Numbered from the stretch's first letter, positions 9,829 to 29,392 are shown. The stretch: DNA of 64,000 nt from Patescibacteria group bacterium (GCA_035291665.1 DATDRP010000006.1:74961-138960), one strand, 5' to 3'. Notes: generated from the letters alone by a model not told the origin. Program-made: numbers and translations.

Positions 9829-9864
9829 TGAAAAATTTATTCTTTTTTAGAAAGGAACAATTTT

Positions 9865-11274
9865 ATGATGGAAACAAGACCTCCGGTTGTAACAGTCTTA
9901 GGCCATGTTGATCACGGCAAGACGACGCTTCTTGATGCTCTAAGAAAAACTTCTGTTGCCGAAAAAGAAGCCGGCGGAATAACGCAAAGCATTGGTTCAT
10001 CTGTTGTTACAACGGCAGACGGTAAGAAAATAACTTTTATTGATACACCCGGGCACGCTGCTTTCACGAAAATGCGGAGCCGTGGAGCGAAAGCTGCCGA
10101 CATCGCAATACTGATAGTTGCTGCAGATGATGGCGTTAAACCACAAACAAAAGAAGCCCTAAAAATAATTTTGGGAGAGCATATCCCATATATAGTAGTT
10201 CTCACAAAGAAAGATTTACCTAATGCTGACACAGAGAAATGTCTTGGTGAACTTGAGAAAGAGGGCATTGCTTTCGAAGGAAGGGGTGGCGATGTACCGT
10301 ATCTGGCAGTTTCTGCAAAAAAAGGTGAGGGGTTGAAAGAACTTCTGGAATTGATAGTCTTGGTGGCCGATGTCACCGGAATTAATGCTGATAAACAGGG
10401 AGCACTTCAGGGATTTGTTGTTGAAACAAGAAAAGACAAACGCGGACCTTTGGCATCTTTGGTAATTACAAACGGAACAATGCGAATTGGAGACGATATA
10501 TTGTGCGACCAAAAAGTGAGTAGGGTGAGGGGGATATTTAATTTTCTTGAAAAGTCGGTAAAAGAAGTTTTTCCCGGAGAACCCGCACTCGTTATTGGTT
10601 TTACTGAACCTCCGGCAGTCGGGTCACAAATTCATTCCATATCGGATAGTTCGGTTGAGGTAAAAAAAGATATTCCGATCGATGTGAGAGGTGAAGAAAC
10701 AAAATTAGGTAGTATTCCCAAACTCAGGCTTGTAGTTAAAACCTTGACCACCGGGAGTTTGGAAGCAATTACCCAGGGTTTGCCGGACGGGGTTGAAGTG
10801 GTTTCAAAAGGTGTAGGAGACGTTATTGATGCTGATGTTTTTTCCTGCAAAGCCTCCAGAAACTGTCGGATATTTGTATTCGAAGCTAAAGTTCCGAATG
10901 ATGTTTCAAAACTAGCTGAAATGGAAGGAGTAGAAATTGAAAGCTTTAATATAATCTACAAACTGTTCGAAAGAGTCGATGAAATTATAAAATCCGGAGA
11001 AGACGAGGTGATGGGAAGTGCTGAAATTATTGCAATATTCCCCTACGAGAAGAAAAGAGTTGCAGGCTGTAAAGTAACCAAGGGTGTAATTGAGAAGAAA
11101 TATCCCTTAAAAATTATGAAAAAAGGAAAAAGTATTGGTAGAACGAAAATCGTTTCAATGAAAAAAGAGAAAAAAGATATTATCTCCTCTGTTGCCGGTG
11201 AAGAATTCGGGGCAATCTTTGAGCCTTATCTTGATTTTGAGAAAGGCGATGTGTTAATATCCATACGCAAATAG
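9865..11274 (+). CDS. infB: Translation initiation factor IF-2 (short form, 469 aa)
   Basis: G domain ([31 protein letters not shown]) followed by domain II and the C domains. It lacks the long N-terminal region. Confidence 0.9.
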   Translation: MMETRPPVVTVLGHVDHGKTTLLDALRKTSVAEKEAGGITQSIGSSVVTTADGKKITFIDTPGHAAFTKMRSRGAKAADIAILIVAADDGVKPQTKEALKIILGEHIPYIVVLTKKDLPNADTEKCLGELEKEGIAFEGRGGDVPYLAVSAKKGEGLKELLELIVLVADVTGINADKQGALQGFVVETRKDKRGPLASLVITNGTMRIGDDILCDQKVSRVRGIFNFLEKSVKEVFPGEPALVIGFTEPPAVGSQIHSISDSSVEVKKDIPIDVRGEETKLGSIPKLRLVVKTLTTGSLEAITQGLPDGVEVVSKGVGDVIDADVFSCKASRNCRIFVFEAKVPNDVSKLAEMEGVEIESFNIIYKLFERVDEIIKSGEDEVMGSAEIIAIFPYEKKRVAGCKVTKGVIEKKYPLKIMKKGKSIGRTKIVSMKKEKKDIISSVAGEEFGAIFEPYLDFEKGDVLISIRK

Positions 11275-15638: not shown

Positions 15639-15808
15639 AGTCCCCCGACCTTACTTTCGCACCCATTCGCGATGGAGGATAAAATTCAGTTAAGTTTTTT
15701 TATCCTATTGGAAACCTTTTACTAATTCAACTAACCAAGATGGAGGATGTTACAACAGATTTCAAGAAAACCACCGAGTCTGACTCGGTGGATGAATTGA
15801 ATTCTGAT

Positions 15809-15861
15809 ATGTCATCCTCCTTTAGAGGAAACCCCGCTCGTAAGAGCGGGGAAGATGTCAT
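15809..15861. repeat. REP-like miniature palindromic element, copy B
   Basis: ATGTCATCCTCC at 15809-15820. A small hairpin tcctc/gagga. A perfect 8-bp hairpin CCCCGCTC-GTAA-GAGCGGGG at 15832-15851 with a GNRA-type loop. It ends with AAGATGTCAT, and a T8 run follows at 15871-15878. Confidence 0.5.
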
Positions 15862-15898: not shown

Positions 15899-16951
15899 AT
15901 GGTAAGTGATGCTTCACAGGAACAACTTAAGATTATTGAGGACAAGGTCAGAAATTCAAAAATTCCGGACGATTTGAGAGCGCGGATAGATCTTCGTTTG
16001 CAGCAATTGGAGCGGCTCATATTATCACCTTCTTTTTTACCGGAACTGGACAGAATCTCCCGGTACGTTGATTGGATTACAACAATCCCCTGGTATGCAA
16101 GGACTGAAGACAATTTGGACTTGACTCACGCTCAAAAAATACTGGATAAAAATCATCATGGTCTGGGAGAAATTAAGGATAGAATCCTCGAATATATTTC
16201 AATAATGAAACTTAAGCAGGAAAAGGGTGAGGGTGAAGATATTATGCGGGCGCCGGCTCTTTGTTTTGTGGGATTAGTAGGAACCGGAAAAACTACAATT
16301 GCTCTTTCGATTGCTGAAGCGCTTGGGAGAAAGTTTGTCAGAATTCCATTTGGCGGTATGGAAAACCCCTTTGATTTGAGAGGTCAGTCAAAAGTTCAAC
16401 CTGAAGCAGAACCGGGAAAAATCGTCAAAGCACTACGTTTGTCTCGAGCAAAAAATCCTGTAATTCTACTCGATGAAATCGACCGTGTTACCGATATGGG
16501 ACGCGCATCGATCATGGGAGTTTTGGTTGAGCTTTTGGATCCGGGTCAAAATCACGCTTATACCGACTATTATATTGACTATCCGGTTGACCTGTCGGAA
16601 GTATTATTTGTGGCAACCGCCAATAATACACACCATATAGCAACCGCTGTTTTGGACAGACTTGAGCCAATTTCAATGCCTTCTTATTCAGATGCGGAAA
16701 AAATTACAATAGGTAAGGATTATATGTTACCCGTAATTTTGAAGGAATCAGGTCTTCGTGAGGGGGATCTGGTGATTAACGACGATGTCTGGCCGCAAAT
16801 TGTCAGACCGCTAGGTTTTGACGCCGGGACGCGTACACTTGAACGGACAATTAAAGGAGTTGCCAGAAAAGTTGCCCGTTTAATTGTTGAAGGAAAGGGA
16901 GATAAATTTATTTTAACCCCCCAGAACATAAAAGAATTCCTACCCAGGTAA
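15899..16951 (+). CDS. Lon-derived AAA+ ATPase lacking both the LON N-domain and the S16 peptidase domain
   Basis: Aligns with Lon residues ~240-585. It has Walker A GLVGTGKTT, Walker B ILLDEIDR, sensor-1 ATANN, and arginines in DRLEP and GTRTLERTI. The ORF stops where the Lon protease domain would begin, and no protease domain is found downstream in any frame. Confidence 0.7.
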   Translation: MVSDASQEQLKIIEDKVRNSKIPDDLRARIDLRLQQLERLILSPSFLPELDRISRYVDWITTIPWYARTEDNLDLTHAQKILDKNHHGLGEIKDRILEYISIMKLKQEKGEGEDIMRAPALCFVGLVGTGKTTIALSIAEALGRKFVRIPFGGMENPFDLRGQSKVQPEAEPGKIVKALRLSRAKNPVILLDEIDRVTDMGRASIMGVLVELLDPGQNHAYTDYYIDYPVDLSEVLFVATANNTHHIATAVLDRLEPISMPSYSDAEKITIGKDYMLPVILKESGLREGDLVINDDVWPQIVRPLGFDAGTRTLERTIKGVARKVARLIVEGKGDKFILTPQNIKEFLPR

Positions 16952-17087
16952 ACAAAAGGTGTTATCATACGAATTTTTACTAATGAAGCGAATATTTACT
17001 TATTACGATTGATTCGATGAAATTTCGGTTATTATAATCTTAATTCGTAATCGTTAGTATATTAGGGAAAATTATTAACAAGCTGAA

Positions 17088-17101
17088 ACCGCATATGCGT
17101 T
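17088..17101. promoter_or_regulatory. PaaX-box-like palindrome ACCGCATATGCGTT upstream of the UDG gene
   Basis: 13/14 match to AACGCATATGCGTT found at the PaaX-like gene promoter. Lies 72 nt upstream of the start at 17173. Confidence 0.4.
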
Positions 17102-17172
17102 GAAGTTGTGTAAAAAAGGGCATAAGAAGATTGCTATCATTTATGTCATTGGTGTTTGCAGCCTGAATTATT

Positions 17173-17811
17173 ATGGGAAAACAAGAACTTCTCAATCAAT
17201 TAAAGAAAAAAATGTCAGATGATGTTACGCTACCGCTTCGGAAAGGTTCAACCCAACTTGTATTCGGAGATGGAAATCCGGACGCAAAGATCTTGTTCAT
17301 CGGCGAGGGGCCGGGTTATTGGGAAGATGTTAAAGGAATTCCCTTTGTCGGGAATGCAGGCGCCCTTTTGAACCAGATGCTCATGATGGTAAAAGTACCA
17401 AGAAAGGATGTTTTCATCACAAACGTTATTCATCATCGGGCACCGCAAAACCGCGATCCGCTTCCGGAGGAAATAAAGGCATATCAACCGTATCTTGACG
17501 AAATAATAAAAGTTATAGACCCGAAAGTTATTGTCACCTTGGGAAGATTCTCGATGGCTAAGTTTTTACCGGGTGTATTCATATCCAGTGTTCATGGTAG
17601 GGAGAAAAAAGTTCAAATTGATGGTAAAAATCGAATTATACTCCCGATGTACCATCCGGCTGCGGCGCTTCGCAATGGTGATGTAAAGCTAAAATTCAAG
17701 ATGGATTTTGAAAAATTGCCTGATATATTAAAGGAAGCGGACAAAATTGAAGAGCAGGGGGTTGTTAAGGAAAAGGACGAGGCAAAAGCTGAACAAATGA
17801 ACTTAATATAA
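17173..17811 (+). CDS. Uracil-DNA glycosylase, family 4-like, lacking all Fe-S cysteine ligands
   Basis: GEGPGYWEDVKGIPFVGNAG matches family-4 motif A. MYHPAAALRN matches motif B. There is no cysteine in the protein. Confidence 0.75.
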   Translation: MGKQELLNQLKKKMSDDVTLPLRKGSTQLVFGDGNPDAKILFIGEGPGYWEDVKGIPFVGNAGALLNQMLMMVKVPRKDVFITNVIHHRAPQNRDPLPEEIKAYQPYLDEIIKVIDPKVIVTLGRFSMAKFLPGVFISSVHGREKKVQIDGKNRIILPMYHPAAALRNGDVKLKFKMDFEKLPDILKEADKIEEQGVVKEKDEAKAEQMNLI

Positions 17812-17839
17812 AATTTAATTTTTGATATTATAAGTAAGT

Positions 17840-19483
17840 ATGTCTTTACGATTTATTGCACTTTCAGGAACAATCAGTGTTACTGAAAATTTATACATTT
17901 ATGAAGCCGAAGGCAAAATGATGATTGTCGATTGCGGCGTGGGATTTCCCGATCTTGAGATGCACGGAGTTGATTTGGTCATACCGGATTTTTCGTATAT
18001 TTTGAAAAATAAAGATAAACTTTCGGGAATTTTGGTTTCCCAGGGCCACGAAGACCACATTGGGGCGCTTCCATTCCTGCTTCGCGAACTGTCAGCTCCG
18101 ATTTATGCAGCGCCATTAGTAACGGAGTTTTTAAAAGATAAGTTTGATGAATATGGAGTAAGAGGAGCCATCATTAACACTTTTAATCCGGATAACGACA
18201 AGTTCGCTATAGGTCCTTTTACAATATATCCTTTTAGGGTTACACATTCGGTACCGGATTCCTGTGGATTTGCAATTGACACACCCGAAGGGAGAATTTT
18301 TCATGTCCCTGAACATAAAATCGATCAAAACCCTGTCGGAGGGATGGGATTTGCTATAGAAAGGGCTAAGGAACTCTCGAATGGCAACAACCTTTTCCTG
18401 GCTTCCGACTGTCTCGGTTCAAATAAACCCGGGTTCACTCCGAACGAACGCCCTATCGAAGATAATATGTTTAAAGTGGCATCAAATGCCCCGCACGCTA
18501 TATTTGCCACTGCAATATCGTCAAACATCGGCCGTTTTCAGCAGATGGTGAATGTTGCACAAAAACTTGGCAGAAAAGTGGTTTTTATCGGAAGGTCGGT
18601 TCAGAAAAAGACTGAGATCGCATTCAATCTTGGACATCTGAAATATCCCAAAGGTTTGGTAGTTGAACTACGTGATGCGTACAATCTTCCCCGAAATAAG
18701 GTTTTCTATATCGTTTCCGGATGTTACGGACAAGTTGGCAGTTCTTTATATAGGATTGCGACTGGTGCTTATGAAAAGCTTGAAATTCAGGAAGGAGATA
18801 TGATGATCTTTTCAGCTGACCCGGCTCCGCCTTATTCCAAAGAAAGTGAGGATTTTGTTATTGACCAACTTATCGATTTAGGAGTGGATGTTCATTATTA
18901 CGATCTGAATGAAGGACTTTATGTATCCGGTCACGGGAGTCAGGAAGATATTACGGAGCTTTTTAGGATTGTAAATCCGAAGTATTTTATACCGATTGGA
19001 GGTTCAGTTCGCTTTATGCATGCGTATAAAAAACTGGTAGGAAAGTTCGGCAGGGACGAGCGCTTGGTTTTTACCCTCAAGCCCGGGGAAAATGTTTACT
19101 TTGAAAACGGTAATGCAAGGCGCGGGGAAAAGGTTGCCTCGAAAGAAATTCTGGTTCACGGTTTAGGTATCGGAGACATCGGAAAAGTAGTTCTTGGCGA
19201 TCGGGCAATATTAGGTAACGAGGGTTTCGTTGTTGTAATTCTAAAGTTTTCAAAGAACGGAAGACTTGTTGACTTACCTGAAATAATCTCAAGAGGTTTT
19301 GTATATGAAAAAATAGAAAAAGCACTTTTGAAAAAAGCTGTAATGGGCATCAAAAGACAAATTGATAAAAAGGCTGGCGATAAAAAACAGCTTCAGCAAA
19401 TTTCGAGGGAATATCTGGAGAGATTCTTCTACCAAAAAACCGGCCGGCGTCCCATGGTTCTTCCTGTCGCAGTTGAAATGTAA
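17840..19483 (+). CDS. rnj: Ribonuclease J (metallo-beta-lactamase / beta-CASP)
   Basis: MBL fold with the GHEDHIGALPFLL motif, a beta-CASP region and a C-terminal domain. 547 aa. The first His of HxHxDH reads Gln (SQGHEDH). Confidence 0.85.
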   Translation: MSLRFIALSGTISVTENLYIYEAEGKMMIVDCGVGFPDLEMHGVDLVIPDFSYILKNKDKLSGILVSQGHEDHIGALPFLLRELSAPIYAAPLVTEFLKDKFDEYGVRGAIINTFNPDNDKFAIGPFTIYPFRVTHSVPDSCGFAIDTPEGRIFHVPEHKIDQNPVGGMGFAIERAKELSNGNNLFLASDCLGSNKPGFTPNERPIEDNMFKVASNAPHAIFATAISSNIGRFQQMVNVAQKLGRKVVFIGRSVQKKTEIAFNLGHLKYPKGLVVELRDAYNLPRNKVFYIVSGCYGQVGSSLYRIATGAYEKLEIQEGDMMIFSADPAPPYSKESEDFVIDQLIDLGVDVHYYDLNEGLYVSGHGSQEDITELFRIVNPKYFIPIGGSVRFMHAYKKLVGKFGRDERLVFTLKPGENVYFENGNARRGEKVASKEILVHGLGIGDIGKVVLGDRAILGNEGFVVVILKFSKNGRLVDLPEIISRGFVYEKIEKALLKKAVMGIKRQIDKKAGDKKQLQQISREYLERFFYQKTGRRPMVLPVAVEM

Positions 19484-19601
19484 AAAACTGGTGAAGTCGG
19501 AACTGATCAATACTTTTTAGGCGGTTTAAGTGAGAACTTCTTTTAATATTTAACCTCCTTTGGGTATAATGAATGTATGAACTAGTTTTGAAATAAGTTC
19601 T

Positions 19602-21743
19602 ATGTCCAAAAAACACCGCCGTTCCAAAAAAACAAAATCCAAAAAAGCATTTCAGCTAAAACTAAAACCGGCAACACTTTATTCAATTGCACAGGTATTT
19701 TTTTATGTTTTAGCAGGACTTACTGTTTTATCATTTTGGCGAAGGGGGTTGGTCCTTATTTATATCAATGATTGGATTGTTAATCTTTTCTCCTGGACAG
19801 CAATATTTTTACCTTTTATTTTTATAACATTCGGCCTTTTGATTTCAAAACTTCGATTACCAATTACCCAACCCAACGTGATGGTTGGCGCACTTCTATT
19901 TTTTGTTTCTTTAATGTCATTTTCGAAAGCAGGAATAATAGGCCAGAGTTTTTTTGACGGGCTTTCCGAGCTAATTACCAATCCCGGAGCATATATTGTT
20001 TTTTTTGGAATGATGATCGTTGGCGGGGTGATTATGTTTAATACATCTCTCGATCAGTTATTTTTATTTCTGGCTGATGTTTATAAAAAATATGTTATAC
20101 GCGGGAGCACCAGGGTAGGCAAGGCTGGGAGTTTCAAAAGTCCTTTAAAAAAGGAACTTAAGGTTGTCGGTGATTCCCCGCTTTCAAATAAACCGCTTTC
20201 AATAAACGAAGCAAAACCGACAAGCTCAAAAGATAATAAGGAATTTTTCGAGAAATCTCCGGATGAGCAGCAATTGGTCAGCAACATCCCGGGTGAGGAA
20301 GCAGTCTGGAAATATCCTCCGATTTCGATTTTTCAGGATACTTCTGGCGGAAAAGCGGACCGCGGGGATATTAAAGGCAACGCGGCCACCATCGAGCAGA
20401 CTCTTGAGTCGTTTGGGATTGCCGCACGGGTAGTTGAAGTAAATCTGGGACCGGCAGTTACGCAGTATGCATTAGAGGTTGCTCTGGGAACAAAACTATC
20501 AAAAATAACAGCACTGGAGCGCGATTTGGCGCTGGCGCTGGCTGCTCCTACCGGAACCATTAGGATAGAAGCACCAATCCCCGGAAGGTCGCTTGTCGGA
20601 ATAGAGCTCCCCAATAAAGCACCTGAGTTTGTTCCGATCAGAAAGATGCTTGAGTCCGATGTGATGAAGGAACAGAAAAGTAAACTTGCAGTATCTTTGG
20701 GATTGGATGTTTCAGGTAAACCGGTTGTCGCAACACTCGCAAAGATGCCGCACGCTCTGGTTGCAGGACAAACGGGTTCAGGTAAAAGTATTTGTTTGAA
20801 TACTTTTTTGGCAACACTTTTATTTCGGGCTTCGCCATCGGAACTTAAGCTTATTTTGGTTGATCCGAAAAGAGTCGAAATGGTTAACTATAACGGCATT
20901 CCGCATCTTTTGTCTCCGGTAATTATTGAACCGGACAAGGTTTTATCGGCGCTTAAATGGTTAATGGGTGAAATGGACCGGAGATATAAGCTTTTTTCTC
21001 AGGCGGGAGTCAGGAATATTGATTCGTATAACGAAATGTCCGGATTTCAGGCTCTTCCGTATATTGTCTTGGTTATCGATGAGCTTGCCGATATTATGCT
21101 TTTTTCACCGGTTGAAGTCGAAGATGCAATAACAAGAATTGCGCAGATGAGCCGTGCGACGGGAATCCATATGATTTTGGCTACTCAGCGTCCGAGTGTT
21201 GATATCATTACGGGTCTTATCAAGGCTAATATCCCGTGTAGAATTGCATTTGCGGTTTCCTCACAGGTGGATTCAAGGGTAGTTCTTGATACTCAAGGGG
21301 CGGAGAAGCTTCTCGGAAAAGGCGATATGTTATATCTTCCTCCTGAACAGGCAAAACCGATTCGTATTCAAGGGGCCTACACAACCGATAAGGATTTGAA
21401 TTCACTTATTTCCTATATCAAAAATCAGGGAGTTCAACCTCAATACACCGAAGAGGTAACATCGATGACAAAAAGAGGAAGCTCAGTCGTCCCGGGATAC
21501 GATGGAGATTTAGATGAGCTTTTCAAGGAAGCGGTAGAAGCTGTATGTCAATACGATAGGGCTTCAGCGTCACTTCTTCAAAGAAGGCTTTCCGTAGGTT
21601 ATGCAAGAGCTGCGCGAATTGTTGATCAACTGGAAGCAGCAGGAGTGATCGGACCCGCTGACGGATCAAAACCACGTGAGGTATTAATTCGAAGCGCGGA
21701 GGAGTTTTTCGCCCAATCCGCCTCAGAACAATCTCAAGAGTAG
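19602..21743 (+). CDS. ftsK: DNA translocase FtsK/SpoIIIE
   Basis: N-terminal TM segments, then a linker, then the motor domain (AGQTGSGKS Walker A, VLVIDELADIM Walker B) and a C-terminal gamma wHTH. Confidence 0.85.
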   Translation: MSKKHRRSKKTKSKKAFQLKLKPATLYSIAQVFFYVLAGLTVLSFWRRGLVLIYINDWIVNLFSWTAIFLPFIFITFGLLISKLRLPITQPNVMVGALLFFVSLMSFSKAGIIGQSFFDGLSELITNPGAYIVFFGMMIVGGVIMFNTSLDQLFLFLADVYKKYVIRGSTRVGKAGSFKSPLKKELKVVGDSPLSNKPLSINEAKPTSSKDNKEFFEKSPDEQQLVSNIPGEEAVWKYPPISIFQDTSGGKADRGDIKGNAATIEQTLESFGIAARVVEVNLGPAVTQYALEVALGTKLSKITALERDLALALAAPTGTIRIEAPIPGRSLVGIELPNKAPEFVPIRKMLESDVMKEQKSKLAVSLGLDVSGKPVVATLAKMPHALVAGQTGSGKSICLNTFLATLLFRASPSELKLILVDPKRVEMVNYNGIPHLLSPVIIEPDKVLSALKWLMGEMDRRYKLFSQAGVRNIDSYNEMSGFQALPYIVLVIDELADIMLFSPVEVEDAITRIAQMSRATGIHMILATQRPSVDIITGLIKANIPCRIAFAVSSQVDSRVVLDTQGAEKLLGKGDMLYLPPEQAKPIRIQGAYTTDKDLNSLISYIKNQGVQPQYTEEVTSMTKRGSSVVPGYDGDLDELFKEAVEAVCQYDRASASLLQRRLSVGYARAARIVDQLEAAGVIGPADGSKPREVLIRSAEEFFAQSASEQSQE

Positions 21744-21758
21744 ACTAACCTACCAAAT

Positions 21759-22382
21759 ATGAAGACAATCGGATTATTTTTGAAAGATGCCCGTTTGAAG
21801 AAAGGTTTAACCCTTAAAAAATTTGAAGAAAAAACAAAGATAAAAAAAAGCTTTCTTCAATATATTGAAACAGAAAAGTGGAATGACCTGCCCGAGTATG
21901 GCGTAGTCAAAGGTTTCGTTAAAAGCATGTCTGATATTTTGGATATCAAAAACGATGTTGCATTTGCACTTTTGAGGAGGGATTATTCATCGAATAAGAA
22001 GGTGGCTGTTAATCCCAAACCGGATCTTAAAATGAAGTTTTCGTGGAGTCCGAAAATAACCGTTTTGGTAGTTGTGGTTTTAGCGATTGTTTCAGTATTG
22101 TCGTATATTGTTTATCAATATATAAATTTCAACCAACCGCCGAAACTCGAATTAGTCCTACCGGTTGAGGACCAGGTTGTTGAAAATTTGGAAGTTGTCG
22201 TAAGCGGCATAACTGATCCTGATGCGGTAGTCATTGCCAACAATCAGCCGATACTTGTTAACAGTGATGGGAATTTTTCGGATACGGTGGAGGTGAAAAA
22301 AGGGGACGAAGAACTTAAGGTTTCCGCCACGTCCCGATCGGGAAAATTTACGGAAATAAGAAGAAGAATAAAAACAAAATAG
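21759..22382 (+). CDS. RodZ-like protein (XRE-type HTH, single TM segment, extracytoplasmic domain)
   Basis: N-terminal HTH (LKDARLKKGLTLKKFEEKTKIKKSFLQYIE), TM segment VLVVVVLAIVSVLSYIVY, and a C-terminal beta-rich domain. Confidence 0.5.
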   Translation: MKTIGLFLKDARLKKGLTLKKFEEKTKIKKSFLQYIETEKWNDLPEYGVVKGFVKSMSDILDIKNDVAFALLRRDYSSNKKVAVNPKPDLKMKFSWSPKITVLVVVVLAIVSVLSYIVYQYINFNQPPKLELVLPVEDQVVENLEVVVSGITDPDAVVIANNQPILVNSDGNFSDTVEVKKGDEELKVSATSRSGKFTEIRRRIKTK

Positions 22383-22434
22383 TCTAAGAAAAAAGTCTAT
22401 GTTTAAGATTTTGTTGTGCAATTTTTTCTTAGAC
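22382..22434. repeat. 13-bp perfect inverted repeat GTCTAAGAAAAAA ... TTTTTTCTTAGAC with a 27-nt spacer
   Basis: Left arm 22382-22394 overlaps the rodZ-like stop codon. Right arm is 22422-22434. Confidence 0.5.
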
Positions 22435-22461
22435 TAACACTTAGGCTTAAACTGATAACTT

Positions 22462-22698
22462 ATGGATGGGGTACAAGTTTTATTAACAGTAGTGGTAGTA
22501 GTTTTGACAGGACTTTTAGTCATTGTCGGAATTCAGGTGGTTTTGGTGATCATCGATCTTCGTAGGGGGTTGAAGAAGCTTAACAGCCTCCTTGACGATT
22601 CTCTTCTTGGGGGAGGATTGATCCGTCCTGATAAAATTACCGGGATTTTGGAAATGTTCCGGAAGAAGAAAAATGTTGAGAAGAGGGGGGAGTATTAG
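22462..22698 (+). CDS. Hypothetical small membrane protein (78 aa)
   Basis: Single strongly hydrophobic N-terminal helix (VLLTVVVVVLTGLLVIVGIQVVLVII). Confidence 0.3.
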   Translation: MDGVQVLLTVVVVVLTGLLVIVGIQVVLVIIDLRRGLKKLNSLLDDSLLGGGLIRPDKITGILEMFRKKKNVEKRGEY

Positions 22699-22727
22699 AA
22701 ACTATTCCCGAAGATTTACATAACTTC

Positions 22728-22741
22728 AACGCATATGCTTT
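22728..22741. promoter_or_regulatory. PaaX-box-like palindrome AACGCATATGCTTT, 10 nt downstream of the PaaX-like stop
   Basis: 13/14 match to the perfect copy at 23568-23581. Confidence 0.4.
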
Positions 22742-22750
22742 GTAATCTTG

Positions 22751-23551
22751 TTAATTATTTTTCAAGATATTTTTGAACAAACGATAAGCTCTATCTCCTT
22801 TCCAATCATATGGAAGTATCTCAAATGGTAACTGTGGATCGTTTCGAAGTATTGCGAGGTATGAAAAAGCGATTTGGTCTTTGGATTTTATTTCCCTACT
22901 TTTAATTAAATTGATAAATCGTTCGTAACTATTATTAAGTTCTTCAAGTCCGTAGACTTTCTCCAGAAGCTCTGACAAATTCAATCCCCCGACGGTTTCA
23001 CCTTTTTCTAATGAAGAAATGAGTATCAGCTCGTTATCAATATTATTTCCTTTAACAAACGACTCAATTAACCCGGTTGGGTTATAAGGAGTAATCCAAA
23101 CGCTTTTTTGTAAGATTCCGCATCCAAGTTTTTTAATGTAATCCCGGAGATTGTCTCTTTCAACATTTTTATCAATAGGAAAATCATATGTAATTAAATA
23201 TATTTTCCCGTCCCAAGTTCTTTTTTTATGATACCTTGGCAGAATTATATTAAGCCTATCTTTTCCTTCCTTTGTAATTGAAGGTAGTGTTAATCCTTCA
23301 TTAATCTTTTGTTTTACGGTCTTGATTAAACCTTTTCGTTTCAAATAATAAACACTTCTTTTGATAGTTTTGTAATTTATTTGCGATATTTTGTCCAAAG
23401 CTTTCTCGCTGGCTCCAAAACCTCTTCCGCTATAGCCGGAAGAGGCAAATTCGATACCATAGAAGATTGAAACTAAAGCCAGATCAACACTTGTTGAAAT
23501 AACACCTTCTGTAATACTTTTCACCTTTTCAGAGATATCTTTCTGACCCAT
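22751..23551 (-). CDS. PaaX-family-like transcriptional regulator
   Basis: N-terminal wHTH region. The hallmark PaaX segment RTWDGKIYLITYDFPIDKNVERDNLRDYIKKLGCGILQKSVWITP compares with E. coli PaaX WDGRWHLVVYSIPE...LGFGQLQQSVWVSP. Confidence 0.55.
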   Translation of the reverse strand: MGQKDISEKVKSITEGVISTSVDLALVSIFYGIEFASSGYSGRGFGASEKALDKISQINYKTIKRSVYYLKRKGLIKTVKQKINEGLTLPSITKEGKDRLNIILPRYHKKRTWDGKIYLITYDFPIDKNVERDNLRDYIKKLGCGILQKSVWITPYNPTGLIESFVKGNNIDNELILISSLEKGETVGGLNLSELLEKVYGLEELNNSYERFINLIKSREIKSKDQIAFSYLAILRNDPQLPFEILPYDWKGDRAYRLFKNILKNN

Positions 23552-23567
23552 ACTATTACAAGTTATT

Positions 23568-23581
23568 AACGCATATGCGTT
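23568..23581. promoter_or_regulatory. Perfect 14-bp palindrome AACGCATATGCGTT, 17 nt upstream of the PaaX-like start codon
   Basis: Perfect dyad. Related copies at 22728 and 17088. Candidate PaaX-like operator. Confidence 0.5.
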
Positions 23582-23587
23582 GATGGG

Positions 23588-23767
23588 TTGTCAATTTTGT
23601 TATTAAGTAATGAATTGTCGATGATAATAAATTGACAAAAAATAGAAAATAATCGGAGAAAGATTTTAATATAAAAACTATATAGACATCACATCTCAAG
23701 ATTGGACTAGAAGTATGATGTCTATAGCATATGTCACATTTTTTTAAGTCCAATATTAAAATGTGAC
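23588..23767. promoter_or_regulatory. Cluster of nested inverted repeats in the alaS upstream region
   Basis: TTGTCAATTT (23588-23597) pairs with AAATTGACAA (23629-23638). TATAGACATCA (23681-23691) pairs with TGATGTCTATA (23716-23726), 11 bp perfect. TTGGACT (23703-09) pairs with AGTCCAA (23747-53). GTCACATTTT (23733-42) pairs with AAAATGTGAC (23758-67). Confidence 0.45.
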
Positions 23768-23808
23768 CTCTGTGGATATAGATAACTATTGAGGATATAA
23801 TTAGGCTC

Positions 23809-25629
23809 ATGAAAGCATCAGATGTCAGGAAAAAATATATTGAGTTTTTCAAAAATCGCGGACATATAGAAATTGAACCGGCTCCACTGGTTTTGGAGAA
23901 TGACCCGACAACGCTTTTTACATCCGCCGGCATGCAGCCTCTTGTACCGTATCTCACCGGTGATCCGTATCCGGGTGGCGCCAGAAGACTTGTAAATTCC
24001 CAACCCTCAATCCGCTTGGGAGATATTGAAGAGGTTGGCGACAACCGCCATACAACCTTTTTTGAAATGCTTGGGAACTGGAGTTTGGGGGATTATTTTA
24101 AAAAAGAACAGCTGCCCTGGATTTTTGAATTTTTTACGGCTGAATTGGGACTTCCCAAGGAAAAGCTTTGGGTTTCGGTTTTTGAAGGAGATGATAAAGT
24201 TCCAAAAGACACCGAGTCTTTTGAAATTTGGGAAAAACTTGGGATTCCTCAGGAAAAAATTATTTATTATCCGGCCAAGAAAAATTGGTGGTCGATGACG
24301 GGAACACCATCTGATATGCAGGTGGGTCATATCGGGGGACCCGATTCAGAGGTCTTTTATGATTTCGGGGAAGATCGTAAATTTCATGAGAATTCACAAT
24401 TTAAAAACGACACCTGCCACCCCAACTGCGACTGCGGAAGGTTTTTGGAAATCGGAAACTCAGTCTTTATTCAGTATAAAAAAGTATCTGATACGGATCT
24501 TGAAGAGCTGCCTCAAAAAAATGTTGATTTTGGAGGCGGGCTTGAAAGAATTACTGCTGCGGTAAATAACACGCCGGACATATTTAATATTGATGTGTTT
24601 AGACCAGCAATAGATAGATTGGAAAAATATTTTGGGAAGGAGTATGGAAAGGAAAAAGAAATTGATGAGATGTACAGAGTAGTTGTTGAACACATCAGAG
24701 CTTCAATTTTTATATTAAATGCAGGTGTTACACCTAGTAACAAACAACAGGGGTATGTTTTAAGAAGATTACTTCGACGCGCTGCTGCAAAGGTATTTAT
24801 TAAAGACAAAACCTTCGATAGTAAAGAATTCAAGTCATTAGCTGAAATAATAATTAGCCAAAATTCAGGAATTATTAAAATTACAAACAAGAAAACCATA
24901 GAAGATCAAATTGTTTATGAGATCGGAAAATTCAGATCAACTATAGAAAGGGGAATGAATGAGGTTAAAAAAGTTGAGAAAATTACGGGACAAACAATGT
25001 TTGATTTGTTCCAATCCTATGGTTTTCCGCCAGAAATTACATTGGAAATTGCTGTTAAAGATAACATAGCAATTGAAGATAATGTGGGAGTAAATTTTGA
25101 AAAGCAAATGGAAGAGCATAAAGAAAAATCCAGAACTTCTTCTGCAGGGGTTTTTAAGGGTGGACTTGCGGATCACTCTGATGAAGTAATAAGATACCAT
25201 ACAGCAACGCATCTTCTTTTGGCATCTCTTCGGAAGGTTCTTGGTGACACTGTTGTCCAAAAAGGCCAAAACATAACGAAAGTTCGCAGCCGTTTTGATT
25301 TTCCGGGGAATGAAAAGTTAGAAGGTGCTCAACTGAAAAATGTGGAAGATATGATTAATGACGTGGTTACAAAAGACCTTCCGGTAAAATCCGTTGTTAT
25401 GTCCAAAGATGAAGCTTTGAAAACCGGTGCAATTCATGCCTTCAATGAAAAGTACGCAGATACGGTCAAGATATACTATGTTGGAGATTCTTTGGACCAA
25501 GCATTCAGTAAGGAATTCTGCGGCGGACCGCATGTTTCCCACACAGGTGAGATCGGGCATGTTAAGATTAGTAAACAGGAAAAGATCGGTGCGGGACTCG
25601 TGAGAGTGTATTTAGTATTAAATAACTAA
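23809..25629 (+). CDS. alaS: Alanine--tRNA ligase, truncated (catalytic, tRNA-recognition and editing domains; no C-Ala domain)
   Basis: Class II core (FTSAGMQPLVPYL), editing-domain motifs HTATHLL and CGGPHV. The ORF ends at 606 aa. Confidence 0.9.
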   Translation: MKASDVRKKYIEFFKNRGHIEIEPAPLVLENDPTTLFTSAGMQPLVPYLTGDPYPGGARRLVNSQPSIRLGDIEEVGDNRHTTFFEMLGNWSLGDYFKKEQLPWIFEFFTAELGLPKEKLWVSVFEGDDKVPKDTESFEIWEKLGIPQEKIIYYPAKKNWWSMTGTPSDMQVGHIGGPDSEVFYDFGEDRKFHENSQFKNDTCHPNCDCGRFLEIGNSVFIQYKKVSDTDLEELPQKNVDFGGGLERITAAVNNTPDIFNIDVFRPAIDRLEKYFGKEYGKEKEIDEMYRVVVEHIRASIFILNAGVTPSNKQQGYVLRRLLRRAAAKVFIKDKTFDSKEFKSLAEIIISQNSGIIKITNKKTIEDQIVYEIGKFRSTIERGMNEVKKVEKITGQTMFDLFQSYGFPPEITLEIAVKDNIAIEDNVGVNFEKQMEEHKEKSRTSSAGVFKGGLADHSDEVIRYHTATHLLLASLRKVLGDTVVQKGQNITKVRSRFDFPGNEKLEGAQLKNVEDMINDVVTKDLPVKSVVMSKDEALKTGAIHAFNEKYADTVKIYYVGDSLDQAFSKEFCGGPHVSHTGEIGHVKISKQEKIGAGLVRVYLVLNN

Positions 25630-29191: not shown

Positions 29192-29392
29192 ATGTTAAAA
29201 AATGTCATTGCTCCGATACAAGCTTGGTTGATGTCGCAAGGCAGGTGTGTTGGCTGCGGAAAACCCCTATCACAGTGGAAAAAGGAGAAAAGAAAAGACG
29301 GAGCGGAGAAGGTAACCTGCGATTGCGGCCGCATCTTTATCCACGATCCAAAAACAAAAAAGTTCAGACGCGCTCTTCTTGAAGAAGTATAA
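29192..29392 (+). CDS. Hypothetical small zinc-ribbon protein (66 aa)
   Basis: CVGCGK ... CDCGRIF gives a C4 arrangement. A TTGACA ... TGGTATACT promoter-like sequence lies upstream. Confidence 0.35.
   Translation: MLKNVIAPIQAWLMSQGRCVGCGKPLSQWKKEKRKDGAEKVTCDCGRIFIHDPKTKKFRRALLEEV

Follow-up and report, generated by a model that had tools for sequence, protein, structure and literature searches.

Dyads at the promoter and the 3' end of a PaaX-like gene in Patescibacteria: probable operators of an autorepressor

Background

The phenylacetyl-CoA-responsive repressor PaaX of Escherichia coli and Pseudomonas combines a winged helix with a Cas2-like dimerisation domain and a C-terminal helical domain, and it represses its own promoter Px by steric hindrance. 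In E. coli, this autorepressor has a bipartite palindromic operator of 39 bp, TGATTC-N27-GAATCA (PMC9493321). Here, we present a computational analysis of a gene for a PaaX-like protein of apparently the same domain architecture and of three copies of a palindromic box, numbered sites 1 to 3 by position, in a stretch of 64 kb from a Patescibacteria group bacterium (DATDRP010000006.1:74961-138960), which is called the window in the following and belongs to a contig of 606 kb. Site 3 is located in front of the PaaX-like gene and appears to overlap its promoter, a likeness to PaaX in position; site 2 lies behind the same gene and site 1 in front of a gene for uracil-DNA glycosylase (UDG). We consider it probable that the three boxes mark the cognate sites of a PaaX-like autorepressor, namely one operator at the promoter, an auxiliary one at the 3' end that may act through a loop or as a roadblock, and one recent extra site.

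Several other described systems make use of repeated sites. The looping repressors DeoR, LacI, GalR and lambda CI have two or more operator copies hundreds of base pairs apart, one at the promoter and the others promoterless, as is the case here. The distance is about 600-900 bp between the deo operators and about 2.4 kb between OL and OR of lambda. In contrast to these systems, the auxiliary site described here is located exactly at the stop codon of the regulator gene, and this placement is conserved family-wide. Cas2, too, occurs together with direct repeats of such length (~30-47 bp) that are partly palindromic, but the repeats studied here are ~840 bp apart and enclose the gene itself, there is neither a Cas1 gene nor an array, and the Cas2-like domain is fused to PaaX_C and a putative DNA-binding domain. 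Finally, integron attC sites, Acinetobacter pdif sites and attL/attR sites bracket single genes by imperfect palindromes of 30-50 bp which differ between cassettes, and their arrays of alternating sites and genes have counterparts in two loci of the present family (L009 and L049). Unlike these cassettes, the PaaX-like loci show no linked integrase or Xer-type gene, the specificity of their sites follows their own non-recombinase protein, the 5' site looks like a working promoter, and the copies are old and diverged; evidence of movement was not found in them.

Results

According to a preliminary description of the window, a perfect palindrome of 14 bp is present at the PaaX-like promoter and two copies with one mismatch each lie behind the same gene and before the UDG gene. 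All three boxes were recovered at these positions (Table 1), the distances to the genes were right to within 1 nt, and all boxes are intergenic. The core GCATATGC was found at exactly these three places of the window and nowhere else in it, as had been claimed; motif counts refer throughout to the window. Its three occurrences compare with 0.36 expected from dinucleotide shuffles, none of 100 shuffles reaching three, and with a Markov expectation of 0.39, while CGCATATGCG was observed twice against 0.02 expected. These expectations rule out a chance origin of the boxes. Since a 10-mer searched with two mismatches was not enriched (14 observed, 12.3 expected), the window contains three sites and no halo of weaker ones. 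Avoidance of CATATG, which would indicate a restriction-type signal, was not seen (16 observed, 10 expected), and a second PaaX-like gene was not found in the window.

The 14-bp palindrome is real, but its size had been understated. Alignment of the three sites in both orientations showed that it is merely the centre of a dyad of ~40 bp, TTnACA-N8-AACGCAT/ATGCGTT-N8-TGTnAA (slash, axis). In all six arms, the outer boxes are without variation: T-ACA at 20-15 to the left of the axis, mirrored by TGT-A on its right. The outer hexamers are separated by 28 bp. Like the PaaX operator, this is a long bipartite palindrome (TTnACA-N28-TGTnAA compared to TGATTC-N27-GAATCA). The closest counterpart of site 1 is site 2: site 1 on the plus strand and site 2 on the minus strand have 39 identities over 47 bp (83%), with a score of 59 compared to 22 +/- 2.7 for shuffled sequences, and they are copies of one element by descent, beyond the sharing of a short consensus. 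The dyads have a polarity, which points into the PaaX-like gene at site 3, in the same direction and thus out of the 3' end of the gene at site 2, and towards UDG at site 1. At site 2, which is flanked by convergent genes and where promoter and terminator features were not found, the outer box TTAACA includes the TAA stop codon of the PaaX-like gene.

Both sites at the PaaX-like gene are retained in its orthologs. The ortholog in locus L007 is 59% identical and has kept its position between the genes for alanyl-tRNA synthetase (AlaRS) and a 78-aa protein. Its upstream spacer has diverged, yet TTGACA-N8-CCGCATATGCGTTAATAA is retained, the arrangement being TTGACA-N8-(A/C)CGCATATGCGTTAATAA, and its 3' copy is likewise placed on the stop codon (gaTTAACAA...AAGTATATGCGTT...CTTGTCAA). 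In L011 (57% identity, Woesebacteria), both sites are kept in degenerate form with a decayed left half.

A wider sample of 83 homologous loci, consisting of 80 loci from GTDB genomes together with L007, L009 and L010, was scored for repeats that occur both upstream and at the 3' end of the gene, and the window was scored alike. A locus was counted as bracketed if its repeat score exceeded those of all 40 control segments of the same locus, by which about two loci are expected by chance. A direct repeat of 20-47 bp centred on the dyad was detected in 54 of the 83 loci, with a spacing of 731-1019 bp and mostly of 802-870 bp. Commonly, the 3' copy extends over the last codons and provides the stop codon. 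The copy behind the gene had thus been correctly reported for the window, while its significance, the recurrence of the bracket, had been missed. Sites 3 and 2 of the window are thus the standard bracket of the family, and site 1 is an extra copy.

The sequence of the dyad is specific for the paralog, with ATGCACGTGCAT, TTGCGGCCGCAA, AAGCTATAGCTT and TATCGGCCGATA among the types found, on a common plan GC-N4-GC in which G occupies position 3 in 36 and C position 4 in 25 of 39 sites. Up to four or more paralogs are present per genome, each with its own dyad, and their identity within a genome is only 35-63%. Proteins with at least ~75% identity mostly share the dyad core or have a one-base variant of it; L039 and L069, which differ more at 77% identity, are an exception. 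Outside the core, 5' and 3' copies differ on average by 35%, and the persistence of the 3' site in two thirds of an old family despite this divergence indicates that it is under selection.

The dyads of many paralogs have an asymmetric centre GACC/GGTC in an otherwise symmetric sequence (e.g. GCGACCGC, CCGACCGG, ACGACCGT), which gives the site an intrinsic direction; in upstream regions, this was observed for L040, L042, L043, L045, L052, L053, L057, L060, L065, L076, L079 and L085. The commonest core type of the family, GCGGCCGC (GC-GGCC-GC), occurs once in the window, at 29325-29332 within the 400-nt spacer between RuvX and YceG (context TTGCGGCCGCAT). This single occurrence is not significant, as 19 of 100 shuffles have at least one; possibly, a paralog with its gene beyond the window has a solo site here. 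Several GTDB records (L017, L018, L027, L028 and others) are titled 'uncultured Gammaproteobacteria / Pseudomonadales (binchicken co-assemblies)'. These titles are probably unreliable because at least L017 has the UDG-RNase J-FtsK-RodZ gene order also found in the Patescibacteria loci.

Copies beyond the bracket are rare in the family (L009, L041, L049 and perhaps L084) and adjoin genes for a GT2 glycosyltransferase, a 23S-rRNA-IVP protein and unannotated open reading frames (ORFs). A repeat of 34-48 bp occurs three to four times per locus in L049 (8981-10800), L009 (4762-6660) and L041 (1543-5460). In L049 and L009, the repeats also bracket genes other than PaaX-like ones, namely a 260-aa ORF without Pfam match and the GT2 glycosyltransferase gene. 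The third copy of L041 is identical in 48 of 48 positions and lies 3 kb away, upstream of a 589-aa ORF without Pfam match.

The two members of the bracket differ in their relation to promoters. A sigma-70-type promoter with at least 9 of 12 consensus positions accompanies 19 of 37 5' copies but only 6 of 37 3' copies, and just one of these six is found at a canonical offset. This difference argues for the 5' copy as a promoter-operator and for the 3' copy as a bare binding site. Of the 19 loci with a good promoter, 17 have the dyad axis at +20, +11/12 or -11/-12 from the start of the -35 box. In the clear cases, the -10 box ends 6-8 nt before the ATG, which points to leaderless mRNAs; in L009, L010, L013 and L020, for example, TTGACA at the +20 offset is followed after 17-18 nt by the -10 box and 6-8 nt later by the ATG. 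The window has TTGACA at this family-typical offset of +20. That site 3 serves as an autoregulatory operator, as proposed in the preliminary description, was supported by its conservation in L007 and L011, by the fixed promoter offsets in the family and by the residue covariation described below, and the promoter site is very probably autoregulatory.

The same leaderless layout as in many PaaX-like paralogs is seen at the adjacent AlaRS gene (23773-23811), where TATAAT ends 7 nt before the ATG and a Shine-Dalgarno sequence is absent, so that its mRNA is probably leaderless as well. Its motif GAGG(A/C)TATAAT..ATG is also present in L091, and L007 retains TATAAT-TAGGCTC-ATG. Two hairpins (23681-23726 and 23733-23767), with the 7-mer GCATATG between them, are situated between the PaaX-like promoter region and the AlaRS promoter; the segment 23681-23767 folds with -29.4 kcal/mol (z = -2.1) and has no Rfam match. 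In L010, a tRNA-like sequence, read by eye at ~9830-9910, lies directly upstream of the promoter of the PaaX-like paralog.

The relation between protein and site was analyzed over all alignment columns. Those of residues 126 and 129 were by far the most informative for the two central bases (z = 10-12, compared to 6.7 for the next column), and both residues are located just past the invariant YD motif, where helix 1 of the Cas2-like domain begins. Of 41 loci with a clean 8-bp palindrome, E126 and a pyrimidine at +1 occurred together in 28 and were both lacking in the other 13, without a locus having only one of them (Fisher p = 6e-11, uncorrected for phylogeny). N129 and T at +2 coincided in 11 loci, two had the base without the residue, none the residue without the base and 28 neither (p = 2e-8, likewise uncorrected), while R, K or H at 129 accompanies C at +2. 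Asn with A:T and Arg or Lys with G:C are classical contacts. Switches occur even within a clade: L054 (PTHHN, T126) has the centre ACGT and L075 (PEFNN, E126) the centre AGCT at 74% identity of the proteins, L050 and L037 differ from L075 in the same manner (65-68% identity), and L029 and L051 form another such pair (62%). This covariation argues that the PaaX-like protein very probably binds these dyads, and that their centre would be read by the Cas2-like core, beyond the winged helix alone.

The assignment of the protein is based on Pfam matches to PaaX_M (PF20803, Cas2-like, 51.2 bits at a cut-off of 24) and PaaX_C (PF08223, 31.5 bits at a cut-off of 22). It is not PaaX proper, as the score for the PaaX equivalog TIGR02277 (59.6 bits) is far under the cut-off of 264.55, and the Pfam model of the PaaX N-terminus gave no match at E <= 0.01. 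The profile of the PaaX-like homologs aligns with the winged helix-turn-helix of PaaX from residue 60 on, and a profile of 38 homologs matched E. coli PaaX (8A39) in the PDB with E = 1e-8. The AlphaFold2 model (pLDDT 81) shows helices at 48-56 and 60-72 and a beta-wing at 76-92, followed by a ferredoxin-like middle domain with beta1 at 116-122 and a helix at 129-141 and by a helical C-terminus; residues 1-15 and 34-54 are of low confidence. Foldseek ranked 8A39, 3KFW and 3L09 first and then many Cas2 structures. The middle domain shares with Cas2 and VapD the ferredoxin-like beta-alpha-beta-beta-alpha-beta fold, an Asp where beta1 ends and a strand of the form Q-x-S-V-(F/W), with 18-26% identity over ~80-100 aligned columns in Foldseek. 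The Cas2 models themselves were missed (PF09827 with 17.3 vs 23.8 bits, TIGR01573 with 20 vs 24.5 bits). Y122 and D123, the latter being the Cas2-type Asp, are invariant in the 38 sequences.

In contrast to E. coli PaaX, the family keeps this Cas2-type motif YD(I/V)P. Further differences to PaaX are the conserved central GC-N4-GC that tracks residues of the Cas2-like domain and is absent from the published PaaX site, the second site at the 3' end of the own gene and the several orthogonal paralogs per genome. The neighbours of the gene in the window encode AlaRS, a 78-aa membrane protein, a RodZ-like protein, FtsK, RNase J and UDG, and gene contexts differ among the homologs. As paa genes are not among these neighbours, the effector is probably different from that of PaaX. 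Neither a cas1 nor a recombinase gene is found among the neighbours, and an Rfam scan of the window, CRISPR-DR included, gave no matches. All sequence relatives of the protein came from Patescibacteria-type assemblies; on viral contigs (IMG/VR), none were found.

Table 1. Coordinates of the boxes, dyads, genes and promoter elements in the window
Feature	Position	Strand	Description
Box of site 3	23568-23581		perfect AACGCATATGCGTT; 17 nt upstream of the minus-strand PaaX-like gene
Box of site 2	22728-22741		AACGCATATGCTTT, 13/14; 10 nt past the PaaX-like stop codon
Box of site 1	17088-17101		ACCGCATATGCGTT, 13/14; 72 nt upstream of the UDG gene
5' dyad (site 3)	23555..23594	-	TTGACA-N8-AACGCAT/ATGCGTT-N8-TGTAAT; 4-43 nt upstream of the PaaX-like start codon
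-35-like TTGACA	23589..23594	-	left outer box of the 5' dyad, with its start 20 nt before the axis
3' dyad (site 2)	22715..22754	-	~40-bp element; polarity as site 3
Site 1	17068..17114	+	third copy, 47-bp element; 59 nt before the UDG start codon
PaaX-like gene	22751..23551	-	266 aa; putative winged helix, Cas2-like middle domain and PaaX_C
UDG gene, family 4	17173..17811	+	first gene of the UDG-RNase J-FtsK-RodZ run; possible extra target
Best sigma-70-like match in the Lon-UDG spacer	17009..17038	+	TTGATT-18-TATAAT; consensus match only

The UDG gene next to site 1 was assigned by TIGR00758 (170.9 bits, cut-off 125.3). A 4Fe-4S cluster is usual in UDG of family 4; the 212 residues of this protein include no cysteine, and hence it cannot hold such a cluster. 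The best promoter match in the spacer between the Lon-like gene and UDG, if used, would place site 1 at about +30 to +70 in the UDG leader, which is a roadblock position. With an alternative extended -10 box TGCTATCAT, read from the sequence at 17132-17140, site 1 would be located near -50.

Conservation of this site was assessed in nine related loci (L091-L097, L104 and L105; UDG 60-78% identical), a sample apart from L007 and L011, which are the sole genomes of the same specificity. The UDG-proximal box was absent in all nine, including the closest UDG relatives L104 and L105 (78%). L091, L094 and L097 (UDG 60-70%) have the synteny PNPase-Lon-UDG-RNase J-FtsK-RodZ-AlaRS without a PaaX-like gene at the RodZ-AlaRS position; their Lon-UDG spacers comprise 9-160 nt of unrelated sequence in L091 and L094 and ~590 nt in L097, again without a box. 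The spacer in the window contains ~75-100 lineage-specific extra nucleotides, the element included, and a remnant of a PaaX-like gene was sought in it, but nothing aligns except for the 47-bp element. With the box absent from all nine loci and with extra copies elsewhere in the family beside unrelated genes, the regulon linking the repressor to DNA repair that the preliminary description had suggested was not supported as stated there, and neither was a conserved repair regulon. The Lon-like ATPase, mentioned in that description as a further possible target, is not a candidate either, as its gene lies upstream of site 1, the polarity of which points away from it.

The Lon-like protein (15899-16951) comprises only the AAA+ module and lid, corresponding to positions 249-568 of the 795-position Lon model, and has neither N-domain nor protease domain; it is found beside UDG in relatives, too. 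The spacer between the genes for polynucleotide phosphorylase (PNPase) and the Lon-like protein harbors an imperfect palindrome of 79 bp (15742-15820) with 39-nt arms of 77% complementarity and 1 nt between them, followed at 15834-15855 by a perfect hairpin CCCCGCTC-GTAA-GAGCGGGG. The structure at 15742-15855 could be a structured 3' untranslated region or leader, or another long operator.

Discussion

In the mechanism proposed here for the PaaX-like autorepressor, one dimer would occupy each site of ~40 bp. Its two winged helices would contact the outer boxes TTnACA and TGTnAA, whose distance of 28 bp resembles that in the operator of E. coli PaaX, and the Cas2-like dimer core would lie on the axis and read the central GC-N4-GC by the loop behind the YD motif and the start of the following helix, through residues 126 and 129 and possibly R132 and R136. 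Bound at the 5' site over its own promoter, the protein would exert negative autoregulation. The 3' site over the stop codon would be a second, promoterless operator, most likely acting together with the 5' site, either by looping out ~840 bp of DNA and thereby tightening repression or as a protein roadblock which shields the inverted gene from read-through. Site 1 upstream of UDG would be a recent extra copy and is expected to be bound as well. We rejected the idea that the 3' copy drives a following gene of the same orientation: of 50 loci with the repeat, 34 have a convergent neighbour downstream, and promoters are scarce at 3' copies. An association of the 3' copy with convergent neighbours was not detected either (34/50 with repeat, 15/26 without, p = 0.45).

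Several points weigh against this mechanism. We know of no regulator, of the PaaX family or otherwise, whose own gene carries an operator at its 3' end. In the group of the window, the -10 box is non-canonical (TAATAA, 20 nt after TTGACA), and the promoter scan favours an alternative further upstream in the window, by which the dyad would be placed in the leader at about +6 to +20; under either promoter, site 3 is in a repressing position. The p-values of the covariation include no correction for phylogeny. Furthermore, the 5' and 3' repeats of some loci (L049, L041, L024) are identical over 25-48 bp, which exceeds the needs of binding and hints at duplication or recombination, and close relatives of the same synteny have neither the PaaX-like gene nor the two sites.

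The main rival explanation regards the bracketing dyads as the recombination or cleavage ends of a cassette of ~860 bp, consisting of one repeat and the gene and recognised by its own Cas2-derived protein, with excision, integration or inversion at the dyads and with site 1 as a solo site, an empty target or a footprint. It would account for direct repeats that bracket the gene regardless of the orientation of its neighbours, for a 3' repeat that enters the last codons and supplies the stop codon, for the asymmetric centre of many sites and for several orthogonal paralogs per genome, and the invariant Cas2-type Asp adjoins exactly those residues which track the central bases. The arrays of three repeats and two non-homologous genes in L049 and L009, perfect or near-perfect over 34-45 bp, are in line with it, as is the occupancy of the RodZ-AlaRS position. 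The window, L007 and L011 have the gene at this position, L040 and L060 have a paralog of other specificity in opposite orientation, and in L091, L094 and L097 the position is empty. The RodZ-AlaRS interval of L040 and L060 holds other ORFs, too, and what L091, L094 and L097 lack between the 78-aa gene and AlaRS is the equivalent of window positions 22699-23808, i.e. the gene with both dyads. On the other hand, paralogs within a genome are too diverged for a recent transposition burst, and the difference of 35% between 5' and 3' copies outside the core characterises these as old and maintained instead of fresh duplicates. There is also no recombinase or Cas1 gene next to the gene, no relative on viral contigs and no recognisable solo dyad at the empty sites, the boundaries of which are not resolvable. 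With the 5' copy plainly being a promoter-operator and nuclease activity being pure conjecture, we regard the cassette as unlikely. In its most specific form, in which the PaaX-like genes of Microgenomates-type Patescibacteria are self-bracketed cassettes, excisable, integrating or invertible, whose repeat of ~40 bp is recognised and perhaps cut or nicked at its centre by the invariant Asp, we would give it little credence.

Two narrower questions concern the nature of the palindromes and the role of site 1. That the palindromes act as nucleic-acid hairpins instead of protein sites, i.e. as terminators, mRNA-stabilising stem-loops or repeats resembling repetitive extragenic palindromes (REP) or miniature inverted-repeat transposable elements (MITE), is suggested by their length and imperfection and by the location of one of them at a 3' end between convergent genes. 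However, folded as RNA, they are of low stability (-6.1 to -7.4 kcal/mol, z -0.8 to -1.3), a T-run is absent and a terminator scan found none. Compensatory changes between 5' and 3' copies are not in excess, with 10 compared to 6-13 in shifted controls and 233 single breaks, and the sequence of the site co-varies with the adjacent protein. The dyad symmetry itself is kept, with 270 'paired-same' positions compared to about 90 in controls. We therefore rejected hairpins, terminators and REP-like repeats as very improbable. For site 1, it is possible, though doubtful, that it is a working, lineage-specific operator which brings the UDG-RNase J-FtsK operon into the PaaX-like regulon. Its 47-bp element is complete, including the two outer boxes and, at the centre, a perfect CGCATATGCG. 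It has its polarity towards UDG, with the best promoter match on one side and the UDG start codon on the other, and other family members likewise have extra copies upstream of other genes (copy 3 of L041, copy 4 of L009). The lack of the box in all nine related loci argues against such a role, as do a position relative to the promoter that is unlike that of the autoregulatory sites and the missing repair theme among the extra copies elsewhere.

Literature searches for PaaX together with Patescibacteria or the candidate phyla radiation (CPR) returned no papers, and those for 'PaaX-like' and for 'Cas2-like' with 'winged helix' returned few, none of which deals with this family by title or abstract. 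To our knowledge, the bracket of 5' and 3' sites, the residue code in the Cas2-like domain and the orthogonal sets of multiple paralogs have not been reported before.

Conclusions

Patescibacteria have very few transcription factors and almost none with a known site, and the dyads described here provide an operator architecture for one family of them. The finding comes with a testable residue-to-base code, which is placed in the Cas2-like domain and not in the helix-turn-helix. Even without catalysis, it would be a new way of recognising DNA if a Cas2 fold read base pairs at the centre of a dyad through such a code (E126, N/R/K129). As to UDG, it should not be annotated as a member of a conserved repair regulon.

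For the biology of these organisms, it is of interest that several mutually orthogonal pairs of regulator and site coexist in genomes of ~0.6-1 Mb, and that a regulator gene bracketed by its own sites is a strongly conserved, unexplained design. A 3' site that serves as loop anchor or insulator would amount to a compact design principle for genes that sit in an operon against its direction of flow. If the 3' site were the end of a cassette, it would belong to a new small mobile unit built on a Cas2 relative, and such a self-bracketed cassette would be a previously unknown mobile or addictive element in which a Cas1-independent Cas2 fold acts sequence-specifically on repeats.

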